Below, in pieces: positions 31,476 through 40,193 of a stretch of DNA of 64,000 nt. Positions within the stretch are counted from its first letter, which is position 1, and each line of letters starts with the position of its first letter. Position numbers and translations under genes: made by a program. Below the pieces are notes generated by a model. It made no database searches and was not told where the DNA came from. It was given only the letters and a program-made list of their open reading frames with translations. The stretch is from Escherichia coli (GTDB taxonomy: Bacteria; Pseudomonadota; Gammaproteobacteria; Enterobacterales; Enterobacteriaceae). The stretch lies in the NCBI RefSeq assembly GCF_050920415.1, contig NZ_CP169309.1, one strand, 5' to 3'.

Positions 31476-33941
<2,466 letters not shown>

Positions 33942-33959
33942 GTTCACTAAAAAATAGAA

Positions 33960-33986
33960 CGGGGCCAAATCGGTCCCGTTTTTTTT
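33960..33986 (+). terminator. Rho-independent terminator after glgP
   Basis: Hairpin cggggccaaatcggtcccg (7-bp stem) followed by tttttttt. Confidence 0.7.
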
Positions 33987-34058
33987 CGCCTTTATTTCGG
34001 AGAAGTGTCCAGAGGGGCAAGGGGACTCGGGGGAGTATAATTTCGCCATTCAGAAAGA

Positions 34059-35576
34059 ATGGAAAGAATAATGCAAAACAAAAAATGGATTTTGACCTCG
34101 CTGGTAATGGCTTTTTTCGGCATCCCCATACTGGCGCAATTTTTGGCAGCGGTTATTGCCATGCTGGGGGCCGGGCTTGCCGCTATTCTTGAGGCTTGCA
34201 ATTTACTCTTTACGCCAACAATTTATCTTCTACTCAACGTCTTTATGCTGACGCTGGGGGCGATAATCCTATTTTTCTCTGGTCGCGTGTGGGCCGGTGA
34301 TAGCGCACCAGAAAACAGAGAAATAGCCGTCTGGCGGCAATGCTTTTTTCTTTTACCTGCACTGTTAACTCTGGTTGGCTGGATAATCACGCTACATCTG
34401 GCAGATTATCAATTTCGCCAAATGGGAGCAGGTTGGTTGGCAGAGCTTATGCTCCCCTGGCTGGGAGTTTTGTTAGTCTCATTAGTCGGAGGTGAGTTCT
34501 GGTGGATAGTCATTATACCCGTTGGTGCGCATATTAGTTTTTCACTGGGGTATGGCTGGCCGACCAGATATCCTTTAACCGGCACGTACGGGTTACGTTG
34601 CCGTAATTCCCTCCTGTTTATCCTTCTCATGCTTGGTTTTATCGCTGGTTATCAGGCTTATTTATATAAACAGATTAATCCCGGCGTCGGTGTGCGTGAA
34701 AATATTGATATCTGGGCCTGGCGACCCGATAAACTCAATAATCAACTGCCGCCACTGCGTGGTAAACCGCAAATTCAGTTTACACAAAACTGGCCGCGAC
34801 TCGATGGTGCTACAGCGGCGTACCCAATTTATGCTTCTGCCTTTTATGCGTTGAGCGTTATACCGGAAGATTTCCACACTTGGGAATATCTGGAGAACTC
34901 TCGTACCCCCGATGCATATAACAGGATTGTTAAAGGTGATGCCGATATTATTTTTGTGGCGCAACCTTCCGGTGGGCAGAAAAAACGCGCAGAGGAATCG
35001 GGCGTCACTTTGAACTACACTCCTTTCGCCCGTGAAGCATTCGTTTTCATCGTCAATGCGGATAACCCGGTTAATTCCCTGACTGACCAACAGGTGCGTG
35101 ACATCTTCAGTGGCGCAATTACCAACTGGCGCACGGTTGGCGGTAACGATCAGGAGATCCAGACCTGGCAACGCCCGGAAGACTCTGGCAGCCAGACAGT
35201 GATGCAATCGCAGGTCATGAAAAATGTCCGCATGATCTCGCCGCAGGAAACCGAAGTGGCAAGCATGATGGAGGGAATGATTAAAGTTGTTGCCGAATAC
35301 CGTAATACAAACAACTCAATAGGCTACACCTTCCGCTATTACGCAACACAAATGAACGCCGATAAAAATATAAAACTGCTAGCTATTAACGGTATTGCAC
35401 CGACTGCGGAAAATATTCGTAACGGCAAATATCCGTATATCGTCGATGCCTTTATGGTAACGCGGGAAAATACTACGTCAGAAACACAAAAACTGGTCGA
35501 ATGGTTTTTAACGCCGCAGGGGCAGAGTCTGGTGGAAGATGTGGGTTATGTACCGTTGCATACAACAATGAAATAA
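34059..35576 (+). CDS. Uncharacterized membrane protein: N-terminal polytopic membrane domain fused to a C-terminal PstS/PBP-like substrate-binding domain
   Basis: 505-aa ORF; residues ~1-200 are hydrophobic multi-TM; the C-terminal half (DGATAAYPIYASAFYAL...IIFVAQPSGGQKKRAEESG...WQRPEDSGSQTVM) looks like a phosphate-binding-protein (PstS-like) fold; no equivalent intact gene recalled at this position in K-12 (where the yzgL pseudogene sits); start may instead be the Met at 34071. Confidence 0.7.
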   Translation: MERIMQNKKWILTSLVMAFFGIPILAQFLAAVIAMLGAGLAAILEACNLLFTPTIYLLLNVFMLTLGAIILFFSGRVWAGDSAPENREIAVWRQCFFLLPALLTLVGWIITLHLADYQFRQMGAGWLAELMLPWLGVLLVSLVGGEFWWIVIIPVGAHISFSLGYGWPTRYPLTGTYGLRCRNSLLFILLMLGFIAGYQAYLYKQINPGVGVRENIDIWAWRPDKLNNQLPPLRGKPQIQFTQNWPRLDGATAAYPIYASAFYALSVIPEDFHTWEYLENSRTPDAYNRIVKGDADIIFVAQPSGGQKKRAEESGVTLNYTPFAREAFVFIVNADNPVNSLTDQQVRDIFSGAITNWRTVGGNDQEIQTWQRPEDSGSQTVMQSQVMKNVRMISPQETEVASMMEGMIKVVAEYRNTNNSIGYTFRYYATQMNADKNIKLLAINGIAPTAENIRNGKYPYIVDAFMVTRENTTSETQKLVEWFLTPQGQSLVEDVGYVPLHTTMK

Positions 35577-35601
35577 CTTTTGAGAGAACGGAATCAGCGC
35601 G

Positions 35602-36594
35602 ATGAATAAATTCATAGGCGTTTTACTGCTAGGTGCGGTTTTACTGGCGGGATGTGTCGACCGGGAAGGGTACTATAACAGCGTCAGGGAAGAAGAAAGC
35701 CATGGACTGACGTCTCTGCGGGGGCAACCAGAATTACGTTACAGCGATGATTGGTCAAGATGGCCGAGAGTGTACGGCGCTACAGCCTTATACCCGCTGT
35801 ATGCTTCCGCGTATTATGAATTAGTACCCGAGCCAAAAGATAAGGATCGAACCTCGCTGGCCTGGCAGGCGTATGGTTTGCAACAAACCCGAACAGCTGA
35901 AGCCTACGATAGTCTGATCAAGGTTACCGCGACGGTTATTTTTGTTGCACAACCGTCGGAAGGACAGAAAAAACGTGCAGAAGAAGCAGGCGTTAAACTG
36001 AAATATACCGCTTTCGCCCGCGAAGCCTTTGTCTTTATCGTTGATATCAAAAACCCGGTTAATTCACTTAGCGAACAGCAGGTCAAAGACATTTTTAGCG
36101 GTAAAGTGAGTCGCTGGAATAAAGTGGGCGGCGGTGACGAAAGTATAAAAGTCTGGCAGCGGCCAGAAGATTCTGGAAGCCAAACGGTTATGAAGGGACT
36201 GGTTATGCAAGATACTCCAATGCTGCCAGCCAAAAAATCCACTGTTATCGATCTTATGGGCAGTTTAATTACCGAAGTCGCCGACTACCAAAACACAACA
36301 TCTTCCATTGGATACACCTTCCACTATTACGTCACGCGTATGAATGACAATATGCTCAAAATGCGCAAACAGATCAAACTGCTGGCTATAAATGGCGTTG
36401 CACCTACAGAGGAAAATATCCGTAACGGCACTTATCCGTACATAATTGATGCTTATATGGTGACGCACGAAAACCCTACGCTGGAAACGCAGAAATTCGT
36501 CGACTGGTTTTTAAGCCCGCAGGGACAGCAATTGGTAGAGGATGTGGGCTATGTGCCGATTCATGACGCATCATACGAATCATCAGTGCAATAA
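35602..36594 (+). CDS. Uncharacterized lipoprotein with PstS/PBP-like substrate-binding domain (paralog of the C-terminal domain of the upstream gene)
   Basis: 330-aa ORF; lipoprotein signal MNKFIGVLLLGAVLLAGC (lipobox LAGC); long near-identical stretches with the previous gene (VIFVAQPSEGQKKRAEEAGV...FAREAFVFIV...WQRPEDSGSQTVM). Confidence 0.75.
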   Translation: MNKFIGVLLLGAVLLAGCVDREGYYNSVREEESHGLTSLRGQPELRYSDDWSRWPRVYGATALYPLYASAYYELVPEPKDKDRTSLAWQAYGLQQTRTAEAYDSLIKVTATVIFVAQPSEGQKKRAEEAGVKLKYTAFAREAFVFIVDIKNPVNSLSEQQVKDIFSGKVSRWNKVGGGDESIKVWQRPEDSGSQTVMKGLVMQDTPMLPAKKSTVIDLMGSLITEVADYQNTTSSIGYTFHYYVTRMNDNMLKMRKQIKLLAINGVAPTEENIRNGTYPYIIDAYMVTHENPTLETQKFVDWFLSPQGQQLVEDVGYVPIHDASYESSVQ

Positions 36595-37196
36595 TGATGA
36601 ATAAAATCAGACTTTATATTCCTCCGTTAATTCTTGGTTTTTTTATTGTGCCGTTGTTGGTGTGGCCGACGGTGGTTGCGCTGGCTGCTTCTGTTATCAC
36701 GCTGAGTTTTCTGGGAGAGATACTGTTCTCTATCCCGCTCATGATCAGGCATATTTCGCTTCTGCAATTACAACTATGGTTATCGGCTGAATATGCGCTT
36801 TTCTGCTGTGCAATGGTGGGCGTTGGTTGGCAATTTGCGCGCAGAACGCCACCTGAATCGAAAAGCAGACTGCATTGTTGGCTGGTATTTGCACCGGTTT
36901 ATTTCTGGTTGCTCCTGTGGAATATCATTTTCTATGTCGCGCCAGCGAATATTGCGTTGCTGGAGAATATGCGCAGTTTCTTTCTGACAGTTGTCTGGCT
37001 CCCACTAAATTTTTCACCATTTTGGTCCCAACCGTGGATTGACTTTGTCGGTCCAATAAGCGCACAGCTTGGTTTTGCGTTGGGATATTATTGCCAGTGG
37101 CGTAGCAAAAATAGAAGCCAGATACGGAAGTGGAGTGAGTGGGGAACGTGCCTGAGTTTTGTTACGTTGGGTATGATGGCGTGGGCTTTGCGGTAA
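36594..37196 (+). CDS. Uncharacterized polytopic inner membrane protein (resembles the N-terminal membrane domain of the 505-aa protein)
   Basis: 200-aa hydrophobic ORF whose start overlaps the upstream stop; segment VGPISAQLGFALGYYCQWR resembles VGAHISFSLGYGWPTRY in the first island protein. Confidence 0.6.
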   Translation: MMNKIRLYIPPLILGFFIVPLLVWPTVVALAASVITLSFLGEILFSIPLMIRHISLLQLQLWLSAEYALFCCAMVGVGWQFARRTPPESKSRLHCWLVFAPVYFWLLLWNIIFYVAPANIALLENMRSFFLTVVWLPLNFSPFWSQPWIDFVGPISAQLGFALGYYCQWRSKNRSQIRKWSEWGTCLSFVTLGMMAWALR

Positions 37197-37247
37197 TTCC
37201 CTGACTCAAAAAGTAGGTCAGATTGTTGACAAAGTGCGCTTTGTTCA

Positions 37248-38626
<1,379 letters not shown>

Positions 38627-38687
38627 TTTTTTGTTTATCATCAGTCTCAGGTCAGATTGAAATCTGACCTGGCCACATTACGTTAAT

Positions 38688-40193
38688 TTACGACGCCAGC
38701 GACAACCTCTGCTGCGTATACTCCCCTAGCCACTGACTCACACGGGATTGTTGCTGCGCATTCAGCCACATGCCTTGTTTTGTGCGACGCCACAGGGCAT
38801 CGTCGGCGCGGCGGACCCATTCGTGATCCACAAGGTATTTCAGCTCCGCTTCGTAGAACTCATGACCGAAATCCTCCCCAAGATCGCTTACCGCCCCCGC
38901 ATTGCCGAGCAGCAGCTCGCTGTTGCTGCCGTAAGTGCGCGCGTAGTGACGTGCCAGCGATTCAGTCAGGAACGGGTAACGGCGGCGCAGGCGGGCGGCA
39001 TAATCGTCGCGATCGCCTTCAATGGCACCACCCGGCAGCACGCTCTCTTTCGTCCACGCCGGGCCAATGCCCTGATAATACGGCGTCAGTTTTTCCAGCG
39101 CGTGCTCCGCCAGTTTGCGGTAGGTGGTCAGCTTACCGCCGAATACCGATAACAGCGGAGCTTTGCCGTTTTCATCATGGATATCAAGGGTGTAATCACG
39201 GGTAATGGCCTGCGGCGAATCAGATTCATCATCACACAGCGGACGCACACCGGAGTAGGTCCAGACGATATCGTCCCGGCTTAACTGCTTTTTAAAGTGC
39301 GTGTTATACACTTTCAGCAGGTAATTGATTTCACTCTCTTCAATCTTCACTGCTTTTGGATCACCTTTGTATTCCACATCGGTGGTGCCGATGATGGAAA
39401 ACTCGTCCATCCACGGGATCACGAAGACAATACGTTTATCTTCGTTTTGCAGAATGTAGGCTTGCTTCTGGGTATGCACACGCGGCACGACAATATGGCT
39501 GCCTTTGATCAGGCGAATGCCATAAGGTGAGGGTAGATGCATCCCGTCGTCGAAGAACTGCTTCACCCACGGGCCGGTGGCGTTCACGAGGCCGCGCGCT
39601 TGCCAGCTATATTTTTTGCCGGTATCGATATCTTCCGCTTCCACAATCCACAGGCCGTTTTCGCGGCGAGCAGAAGTGGCACGAGTACGGGTAAGCACTT
39701 CACCGCCTTTACGCACCACCATCTGGGCGTTGGCGAGTACCAGACGGGCGTCGTCTACCCAACAGTCGGAATATTCGAATCCGCGCTTAATTTCCGGTTT
39801 TAACACTGAATTTGCGCCAAAACGCAAACCGGTTGATCCCGGCAGGCTGGTGCGTTTACCCAGATGATCGTACATAAACAGACCAATACGGATCATCCAC
39901 GCCGGACGCAGATGCGGGCGATGCGGCAGGCGAAAACGCATCGGGAAAGCGATATGGGGAGCCATTTTCAGCAACACTTCACGTTCAGCCAGCGCCTCGC
40001 TGACCAGGCGGAATTCATAGTGCTCAAGGTAGCGCAGGCCACCATGAATGAGTTTTGAACTGGCGGAAGAGGTCGCACAAGCGAGATCCTGCGCCTCCAG
40101 CATCAGCACGGATAAACCGCGTCCAGCGGCGTCTGCCGCGATACCAGCACCATTGATGCCGCCACCTATCACAATCAGATCTTTGGTTTCCAT
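38688..40193 (-). CDS. glpD: Aerobic sn-glycerol-3-phosphate dehydrogenase
   Basis: Internal start METKDLIVIGGGINGAGIAADAAGRG (FAD-binding motif) within ORF 38688..40208; 501 aa. Confidence 0.96.
   Translation of the reverse strand: METKDLIVIGGGINGAGIAADAAGRGLSVLMLEAQDLACATSSASSKLIHGGLRYLEHYEFRLVSEALAEREVLLKMAPHIAFPMRFRLPHRPHLRPAWMIRIGLFMYDHLGKRTSLPGSTGLRFGANSVLKPEIKRGFEYSDCWVDDARLVLANAQMVVRKGGEVLTRTRATSARRENGLWIVEAEDIDTGKKYSWQARGLVNATGPWVKQFFDDGMHLPSPYGIRLIKGSHIVVPRVHTQKQAYILQNEDKRIVFVIPWMDEFSIIGTTDVEYKGDPKAVKIEESEINYLLKVYNTHFKKQLSRDDIVWTYSGVRPLCDDESDSPQAITRDYTLDIHDENGKAPLLSVFGGKLTTYRKLAEHALEKLTPYYQGIGPAWTKESVLPGGAIEGDRDDYAARLRRRYPFLTESLARHYARTYGSNSELLLGNAGAVSDLGEDFGHEFYEAELKYLVDHEWVRRADDALWRRTKQGMWLNAQQQSRVSQWLGEYTQQRLSLAS

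Follow-up and report, generated by a model that had tools for sequence, protein, structure and literature searches.

What do three genes encoding PstS-like and membrane proteins do between glgP and glpD of Escherichia coli, where no transporter accompanies them? The question is raised by a 64,000-nucleotide stretch of contig NZ_CP169309.1 (assembly GCF_050920415.1), hereafter the window, which corresponds to the E. coli glgC-glgA-glgP / glpD-glpE-glpG region. The span 34059–37196 is occupied by three plus-strand open reading frames (ORFs), g1, g2 and g3, and the ORF list holds no ATP-binding cassette (ABC) permease or ATPase between glgP and glpD. The three genes are real and probably functional, and they are unlikely to be a normal phosphate uptake system. 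In them a PstS-derived binding domain, set apart from ABC transport, is combined with a membrane domain of no classified family. We tentatively regard the module as a stand-alone, membrane-integrated periplasmic oxyanion receptor, a reading to which we assign a little less than even weight. A preliminary description of the locus had reported three intact, tightly linked genes without an accompanying ABC permease or ATPase, bounded by the glgP terminator and by a bacterial interspersed mosaic element (BIME) with an insertion sequence (IS); it was exact in each of these respects. The spacer between g1 and g2 is 25 nt, and the g2 stop codon shares 1 nt with the g3 start codon (TAATG), an arrangement typical of translational coupling, which suggests that g2 and g3 are coupled.

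The binding domains are the most readily identified parts of the locus. Pfam PBP_like_2 (PF12849) matches residues 250–485 of g1 (E = 1.4e-29) and residues 95–306 of g2 (E = 1.2e-27), and identity between g2 and the last 286 residues of g1 is 58%. The AlphaFold2 model of g1, for which 28 diverse homologues were used (mean predicted local distance difference test score, pLDDT, of 82.7), has six long helices followed by an alpha/beta domain, and residues ~245–500 constitute a PstS-like type II periplasmic binding domain. The profile match and two-lobe alpha/beta fold together place g1 and g2 in the PBP_like_2 superfamily. Foldseek comparison of the g1 binding domain with the PDB gives short PstS proteins as best matches (9l8j, 4n13, 4gd5, 1twy and 4exl; E = 1e-12 to 1e-14), and all matches of a PDB sequence-profile search are phosphate-binding proteins, with 4q8r the best (E = 1e-25). 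Of these structures, 4gd5 and 4q8r are from Clostridium perfringens, 1twy is from Vibrio cholerae, 4exl is from Streptococcus pneumoniae and 9l8j is Sll0540. The periplasmic binding protein (PBP) fold, which had been proposed for checking by profile or structure search, is thus confirmed by Pfam, PDB sequence search and Foldseek, and the earlier view of g1 as a 505-aa polytopic/PstS-like fusion stands, with six helices ahead of the binding domain. The same applies to g2, correctly described as a 330-aa PstS-like lipoprotein: its signal peptide ends in a lipobox, LLAG|C (MNKFIGVLLLGAVLLAG|C), that fits the pattern [LVI][ASTG][GAS]C and is followed by Val at +2. Among 23 relatives of ~330 aa, most have an AGC or SGC lipobox (the search pattern overlooked T-A-G-C variants), and none of those has Asp at +2.

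The membrane part belongs to no known family. Residues 1–~206 of g1 form a six-helix domain (helices 2–46, 53–81, 87–114, 124–144, 149–169 and 177–206 in the AlphaFold2 model) that reaches a pLDDT of 88.4 and a predicted TM-score (pTM) of 0.85 when modelled alone. Significant Foldseek matches in AFDB50 are confined to its own family, and weaker ones are Firmicutes 'PBP domain-containing' proteins; the domain has no Pfam family, no structural relative and no likeness to an ABC permease or known transporter folds in the Foldseek searches. No Pfam match was obtained for g3 either. Alignment of a profile of 17 g3 relatives with one of 28 g1 relatives pairs g3 residues 1–174 with g1 residues 5–167 (hhalign probability 96.8%, E = 2.3e-10); homology is visible by profile-profile comparison only, and direct BLASTP of g1 residues 1–214 against g3 is not significant. 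The 200-aa product had been listed as a membrane protein, which it is, but rather than a separate kind of component it is the membrane domain of g1 in stand-alone form. The locus order accordingly reads, at the level of sequence homology, as membrane domain–binding domain, binding domain, membrane domain, i.e., one fused copy and one split and reordered copy. A profile search of 1.84 billion representative proteins with the membrane domain gave 191 matches (E <= 0.001), mostly of ~480–540 aa or ~200 aa, and 8 of the 8 longer sequences inspected are membrane-PBP fusions. The membrane domain appears essentially always to travel with a PstS-like binding domain. In Pseudocitrobacter cyperus (locus L015, 5001–7057), a 351-aa ORF whose start is overlapped by a g2-like lipoprotein gene consists of the membrane domain and a binding domain with a large internal deletion. 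This ORF, a membrane domain with a gutted binding domain, may be an intermediate, and it suggests that g3 was derived from a second fusion gene through loss of the binding part.

How close to PstS are these proteins, and is phosphate their ligand? TIGR02136 is their best NCBIfam match, and whole-protein scores of g1 and g2 are 118.8 and 117.8 bits against a curated cut-off of 206.6 bits, which means that the PstS family threshold is not reached. Firmicutes relatives score 137 and 114 bits against the same model, and the TIGR00975 score is 16.5 against a cut-off of 205. In thousands of genomes these genes carry the label 'PstS family phosphate ABC transporter substrate-binding protein', which claims too much; the family is misnamed in annotation. 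The eight phosphate-ligating positions of E. coli PstS are reportedly T10, F11, S38, D56, R135, S139, G140 and T141 (attributed to Luecke and Quiocho), and at moderate alignment confidence seven of the eight appear to be identical or conservatively replaced in g1. The g1 motif GATxxxPxY at residues 250–258 parallels GAT10F11PAPVY of E. coli PstS, and Thr252, Arg372, Ser376 and Ser378 are invariant among 28 family members. An oxyanion site in the binding domain is likely on this residue pattern, specificity aside.

The family is widespread, and its surroundings differ from those of an ABC importer. A scan of one genome per GTDB species gave at least 578 relatives in Beta- and Gammaproteobacteria, Bacillota, Actinomycetota, Synergistaceae, Treponema, Opitutaceae and others, in two architectures: proteins of 485–540 aa with the six-helix domain and a 380–400-aa Bacillales form with three or four helices. 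The helices of the Bacillales form align to g1 helices 4–6, and this form is a single stand-alone gene in many genera (L039–L094), with at least one copy per genome surveyed. The family-specific motifs P-F-A-R-E-A-F-V-F and Q-R-P-x-D-S-G-S-Q mark a separate clade. Orthologues of g1 (~50% identity) lie at the glgP-glpD position in Klebsiella oxytoca, Salmonella, Superficieibacter and Phytobacter, where unrelated small ORFs come next, and Pseudocitrobacter has a g2-like gene at this position. In a Walker-A/LSGGQ scan of 77 loci taken from species-representative genomes, none has an importer-type ABC ATPase within three genes of the family member, and the seven homologue contexts inspected by hand have no ABC genes. 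All-against-all clustering of 1081 neighbour ORFs yielded no conserved functional neighbour; recurrent neighbours reflect lineage-specific synteny (glg/glp in Enterobacteriaceae; PhoPQ once, in Rahnella; and HtpG, formate-tetrahydrofolate ligase, TyrS, a sporulation-type kinase and multidrug exporters in Bacillales). A stand-alone module is favoured because neighbours vary and no importer-type ABC gene adjoins. The gene-neighbourhood comparison that the preliminary description had proposed thus places the homologues outside ABC operons, and its judgement that a conventional phosphate importer is unlikely is supported by these neighbourhoods; a sensing or non-ABC role, which it had also raised, may apply. 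A degraded ABC operon, considered separately, was rejected on the absence of ABC neighbours in the 7 inspected contexts and 77 scanned loci.

These data bear most directly on the possibility that the proteins are tethered, spare PstS, in which the binding domains would pass phosphate in trans to PstCAB or another ABC permease while the membrane domain or lipid anchor serves only as a tether. The PstS-like fold, mostly retained ligating residues and best NCBIfam match to TIGR02136 agree with this idea. Lipoprotein PstS stays at the membrane in Gram-positive bacteria, and a precedent exists in other ABC systems, where some orphan binding proteins serve a permease encoded elsewhere. However, scores of 114–137 bits lie far under the cut-off in Proteobacteria and Firmicutes alike, a pst gene is adjacent in 0 of the 77 loci, and E. 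coli PstS is of a different subfamily with ~17% identity. A consensus scan of the whole window at up to three mismatches gave no Pho box. One helix or a lipid anchor would suffice for tethering, yet the six-helix domain is co-inherited across phyla. We consider this explanation unlikely, although it ranks first among the rivals, followed by a new carrier, a lipid-phosphate sensor, an immunity function and a relic.

Conservation within the proteins indicates where function may reside. In a comparison of 26 full-length members drawn from several phyla, conservation of at least 80% is confined within the membrane part to Pro23 and Gly145, Pro23 being its sole invariant residue across phyla, and no charged or polar intramembrane residue reaches 80% conservation. 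The binding domain has ~85 positions conserved at that level across the same 26 members. This disparity is easier to square with a scaffold or contact surface than with a pore or enzyme. The N-terminus of g1 and its loops at 76–92 and 168–183 are rich in Lys and Arg (means of 2.2, 2.4 and 4.0 per sequence), and loops 47–52, 115–125 and 145–148 are not. We infer an N-in, C-out topology with a periplasmic g1 binding domain because the Lys/Arg-rich N-terminus and loops fit it and because g2-type proteins carry lipoboxes.

The identities of the parts are secure, and from them we infer a mechanism for the favoured oxyanion receptor. A single two-part module occurs in two formats, fused in g1 and split, reordered and probably translationally coupled in g2 and g3. 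The binding domain would most likely close on a tetrahedral oxyanion, be it phosphate or the phosphoryl group of some larger molecule, in a PstS-like site that lacks the Asp56-type discriminator. The membrane domain would be a fast-evolving scaffold, not a pore or enzyme, that keeps the binding domain on the outer side of the inner membrane; it would presumably relay the occupied state of the site, or hand on the ligand, via intramembrane contacts, in a scaffold or relay role. The module would act alone, not as the receptor of a dedicated ABC importer, with no sign of Pho regulon membership.

Two other explanations give the membrane domain a different role. One is a transporter or channel of a new kind, dependent on a binding protein but not of the ABC type, in which oligomers of the six-helix domain would form a pathway for the anion that the fused binding domain captures. 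In agreement with it, binding and membrane domains are obligately coupled, by fusion or translationally, and binding proteins serve secondary carriers in the tripartite ATP-independent periplasmic (TRAP) and tripartite tricarboxylate transporter (TTT) systems. We hold this to be improbable. In an envelope phospholipid or polyprenyl-phosphate sensor, the membrane domain would hold the lipid tail and the binding domain would clamp the phosphate head, as in PbgA/YejM. A polytopic protein with a periplasmic phosphate-recognising domain and without cytoplasmic output resembles the PbgA/YejM class, the strong conservation of the binding domain from Gram-negative to Gram-positive bacteria would suit a universal envelope ligand, and the missing Asp56-type residue opens the site. 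The resemblance is purely analogical, however: there is no fold relation to PbgA/YejM-type proteins, envelope-biogenesis genes are not among the neighbours, and many E. coli do without g1–g3. We judge the sensor to be just as improbable as the carrier. A broader conjecture, to which we give low credence, although slightly more than to either of these, is that the membrane-PBP (TM-PBP) proteins represent a new class of binding-protein-dependent membrane device (not ABC, TRAP, TTT or sensor kinase), in which the PstS-derived domain would read or hand over a phosphoryl-bearing envelope molecule, such as polyprenyl phosphate or a phospholipid head group, via a six-helix domain not seen before, with Enterobacteriaceae paralogues maybe recruited in addition to toxin-immunity arrays of the type VI secretion system (T6SS)/Rhs kind. 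The family is real and wide, and nothing so far points to an unusual mechanism.

Several observations weigh against the stand-alone oxyanion receptor that we prefer. The Asp56 position of PstS is occupied by Ala301 in at least 80% of members, and beside it the SR(D) of short PstS proteins reads AQ(P) in this family; phosphate itself is therefore not assured as the ligand. The hhalign comparison of the g1 family with E. coli PstS (1ixh) is weak (probability 79.7%, ~20% identity) and leaves the N-terminal motif uncovered, so that this motif was paired by eye and through the 4q8r alignment. At this alignment quality, the phosphate-ligating residues that the preliminary description had singled out for checking appear to be kept or conservatively replaced at seven positions, with Ala at the Asp56 position. 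The full-length g1 model has a pTM of only 0.65, which makes the mutual arrangement of its two domains uncertain. Six predicted helices with the N-terminus inside would put the binding domain in the cytoplasm; a periplasmic position requires an odd number of crossings, in which case the helix 4/helix 5 pair would count as one. The proteins have no cytoplasmic output domain, which makes any relay partner purely hypothetical. Frequent loss (the K-12 deletion described below, IS3 and IS66 insertions and truncated alleles) shows that the genes are dispensable in many strains, and we found no published functional study of these genes or of the family in the literature.

Within E. coli, 3346 of 5426 complete genomes (62%) carry g1 at >=80% coverage, and 876 (16%) have the g2+g3 pair, O157:H7 and a BL21(DE3) derivative among them. 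If O-island 133 of EDL933 is this locus, the reduced type III secretion reported for an OI-133 deletion mutant (PMC3378721) would be relevant here. The initial picture of a strain-specific accessory island is misleading in this light: g1 is also syntenic in other genera, and the locus is ancestral and widespread. The earlier statement that K-12 has only the pseudogene yzgL here was right, according to K-12-type annotation and comparison with JM83; between glgP and glpD, K-12-type genomes carry only yzgL. Deletion has brought g1 codon ~78 and g3 codon ~182 together in different frames, with a 5-bp microhomology (GTGGG) at the junction, and yzgL consists of the first 235 nt of g1 and the last 60 nt of g3. 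It is a simple deletion scar, and K-12 represents an eroded state of the locus. The only genome that is 100% identical across the locus (NZ_CP169399.1) has IS3 inside g2. In E. coli GN03590 (locus L012, 2777–4152), g1 is followed by an unrelated 255-aa ORF in place of g2 and then by a g3 allele; the g3 allele of such strains has 76% nucleotide identity and a synonymous divergence (dS) of 0.92, and the 255-aa ORF has no Pfam or NCBIfam family.

Pairwise ratios of nonsynonymous to synonymous divergence (dN/dS), taken against alleles with dS of 0.17–0.92, are 0.14–0.22 for g1, 0.11 for g2 and 0.18–0.22 for g3, compared with 0.01–0.03 for glgP. The three genes are under purifying selection where present, and they are not chance ORFs because pairwise dN/dS is 0.11–0.22 over substantial dS. 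A decaying remnant without function would be consistent with the K-12 deletion, the IS3 copy in the closest relative and the many truncated alleles; nevertheless, the genes are intact in the window, dN/dS is 0.11–0.22 over substantial dS, g1 is full-length in 62% of complete genomes and the family is conserved across phyla. This is the least credible of the explanations, and we regard it as very improbable. The glgP 3' half (32400–33941) is ~95% identical to its counterpart in 5396 of 5425 complete genomes and >=99% identical in only 2; the strain of the window belongs to a divergent E. coli lineage. Locus-specific hyper-divergence of g1 was partly rejected for this reason, the whole strain being divergent, and dS of g1 and g2 is still ~2x that of glgP.

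An array in Salmonella raises the further idea that these are immunity or defence-type genes directed against an envelope-acting toxin, kept as orphan immunity genes in a variable hotspot. The Salmonella enterica array (L013, 229–9988; also L099–L101) carries two g2-like PBP_like_2 lipoproteins of 335 and 330 aa. The same array contains Rhs core-end fragments (YYNPEQGRYITQDPIGL), PAAR-like N-termini (MSGKPAARQNDM...), a HExxH/Peptidase_M91-like ORF, Ntox34 and HEAT_2 ORFs, and it looks like a T6SS/Rhs orphan toxin-immunity island. One of its two lipoprotein genes lies directly 3' of an Rhs C-terminal fragment, variable small ORFs accompany the genes at the glgP-glpD site and alleles are deeply diverged (g3 dS up to 0.92), all of which would suit an immunity role. 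On the other side, the window has no toxin ORF and no PADLOC hit, no PBP gene adjoins the sole distant homologue of the Rhs tip from Salmonella, dN/dS of 0.1–0.2 is not diversifying and the family, unlike immunity proteins, is a single stand-alone gene across many phyla at ~40% identity. We view such a role as highly unlikely. Two narrower candidates were rejected: a defence system, given that PADLOC returned no hits and Rhs/PAAR co-location occurs in only one Salmonella array, and a general pairing as immunity to an Rhs toxin, given that the Rhs tip encoded upstream of a g2-like gene in Salmonella matches no Pfam family and has only four homologues, of which the distant one is without a PBP gene.

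Other members of the family also occupy variable positions. The ORFs that follow the g1 orthologue in Klebsiella (L002, 7838–8958) and Salmonella (L005, 7564–8109) have a common 45-residue N-terminal module, MED[IV]KLYV...GVDPASGADI (NCBIfam NF007301), and share a YbbD_head (PF26610) lipoprotein-like part that is fused in Salmonella and split in Klebsiella. A distant paralogue lies between ruvC and yebB/ruvA in Salmonella (L007, 5449–10065), and a distant family member overlaps the ruvB stop codon in Brachymonas (L008, 4938–7503); this repeated ruv adjacency in two unrelated lineages is possibly coincidental. Further distant members occur in variable regions of Budviciaceae and Leminorella.

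Features of the locus and residue correspondences between E. coli PstS and g1 (coordinates refer to the window)
Feature	Position	Strand	Description	Basis
glgP intrinsic terminator	~33959–33985	+	upstream locus boundary	read directly from sequence
Candidate g1-g2-g3 promoter, -10 hexamer	34036–34041	+	TATAAT, perfect	read from sequence
g1	34059–35576	+	505-aa fusion, membrane domain + PstS-like domain	ORF list, Pfam, AlphaFold2, Foldseek
g1 membrane domain	34059–34724	+	six helices	
Segment deleted in K-12-type genomes	34294–37136		2,843 bp	blastn of JM83 locus, junction sequences, annotation
g2	35602–36594	+	330-aa PstS-like lipoprotein	ORF list, Pfam, lipobox
g3	36594–37196	+	200-aa membrane protein	ORF list, hhalign
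Repetitive extragenic palindromic (REP) element, first half of BIME	37249–37284		GCCGGATGCGACATGAACGTCTTATTGGCCTACAAG; kept in K-12	sequence
IS621 (IS110 family)	37321–38597	-	inside second REP	annotation of identical locus, K-12 comparison
Counterpart of PstS Thr10	g1 Thr252			GATxxxPxY motif, by eye and 4q8r alignment
Counterpart of PstS Phe11 (backbone)	g1 Ala253			GATxxxPxY motif
Counterpart of PstS Ser38	g1 Thr283			one residue ahead of hhalign alignment start on 1ixh (before Ser39 column)
Counterpart of PstS Arg135	g1 Arg372			hhalign to 1ixh
Counterpart of PstS Ser139	g1 Ser376			hhalign to 1ixh
Counterpart of PstS Gly140	g1 Gly377			hhalign to 1ixh
Counterpart of PstS Thr141	g1 Ser378			hhalign to 1ixh

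The glgP stop codon at 33941 is followed by a terminator with an imperfect GC hairpin, ACGGGGCC-AAAT-(C)GGTCCCGT, and T8; a G-T pair in the hairpin kept it out of the sites listed by the consensus scan. The candidate -10 hexamer is 18–30 nt 5' of the g1 start codons and has no recognisable -35, and it is missing from the sites given by the consensus promoter scan. It may serve as the promoter of g1-g2-g3, and a perfect -10 without a -35 hints at activator-dependent transcription. The alternative g1 start codon, at 34068, would give a 502-aa product and is the one annotated by PGAP for the identical gene in NZ_CP169399.1. The GC content of g1–g3 (0.44–0.51) is a little under that of flanking DNA, and positions 33800–38800 have no Rfam match. 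On the 3' side of g3 are two REP elements that make up the BIME, followed by glpD on the minus strand. The IS621 copy falls outside the three-gene unit. At this site NZ_CP169399.1 has an intact copy, relative to which the transposase in the window is frameshifted by a 1-nt deletion at ~37665 that leaves ORFs of 250 and 76 aa. IS621 encodes a bridge RNA in its 5' non-coding part; in the window this part (~38406–38597) is without an Rfam match.

These results have several implications. Periplasmic binding proteins are known to work with ABC, TRAP and TTT carriers, chemoreceptors and sensor kinases; should the module prove to be a stand-alone receptor, its six-helix domain would be a new membrane partner for them. 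Natural null (K-12) and positive (BL21(DE3)-derived and O157:H7) backgrounds exist, which makes the system tractable, and the K-12 pseudogene yzgL is explained by deletion.

Comparison with known systems clarifies what is shared and what is particular to these genes. The closest by position is yzgL of E. coli K-12, which occupies the same locus and retains the first 78 g1 codons but has lost everything from g1 codon ~79 to g3 codon ~181. In the GlnPQ and OpuA type of importer, substrate-binding domains are fused to ABC permeases. Like g1, these proteins have a binding domain and a polytopic membrane domain in one chain, whereas the g1 membrane domain has no likeness to the ABC permease fold and no ATPase gene alongside. 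Proteins of the PbgA/YejM and LtaS/EptA class have about five or six helices and a periplasmic domain of the alkaline-phosphatase superfamily, with no cytoplasmic output. They resemble g1 in overall layout, but their alkaline-phosphatase fold differs from the type II binding protein fold of g1, and no homology between them was detected. E. coli PstS (TIGR00975; 1ixh) has probable counterparts in g1 at seven of its eight ligating positions; it differs in its low identity (~17%) and in having Asp56 where g1 has Ala301, and g1–g3 lack a Pho box and lie outside the pst operon. The short PstS proteins (TIGR02136) are the nearest relatives: they share the type II fold, provide the best sequence and structure matches of g1 and g2 and have in common with them the motifs G-x-T in the first helix, R-x-x-x-S-G-S/T, P-T-x-E-N-I-x-x-G-x-Y-P and G-Y-x-F/Y. 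They differ in that g1 and g2 reach ~118 bits against the cut-off of 206.6 and are not beside pstCAB, in that the A-S-R-D segment of short PstS proteins is A-Q-P-S in the g1/g2 family and in that the g1/g2 binding domain comes with a polytopic membrane domain, either as a fusion or as a separate paired protein.

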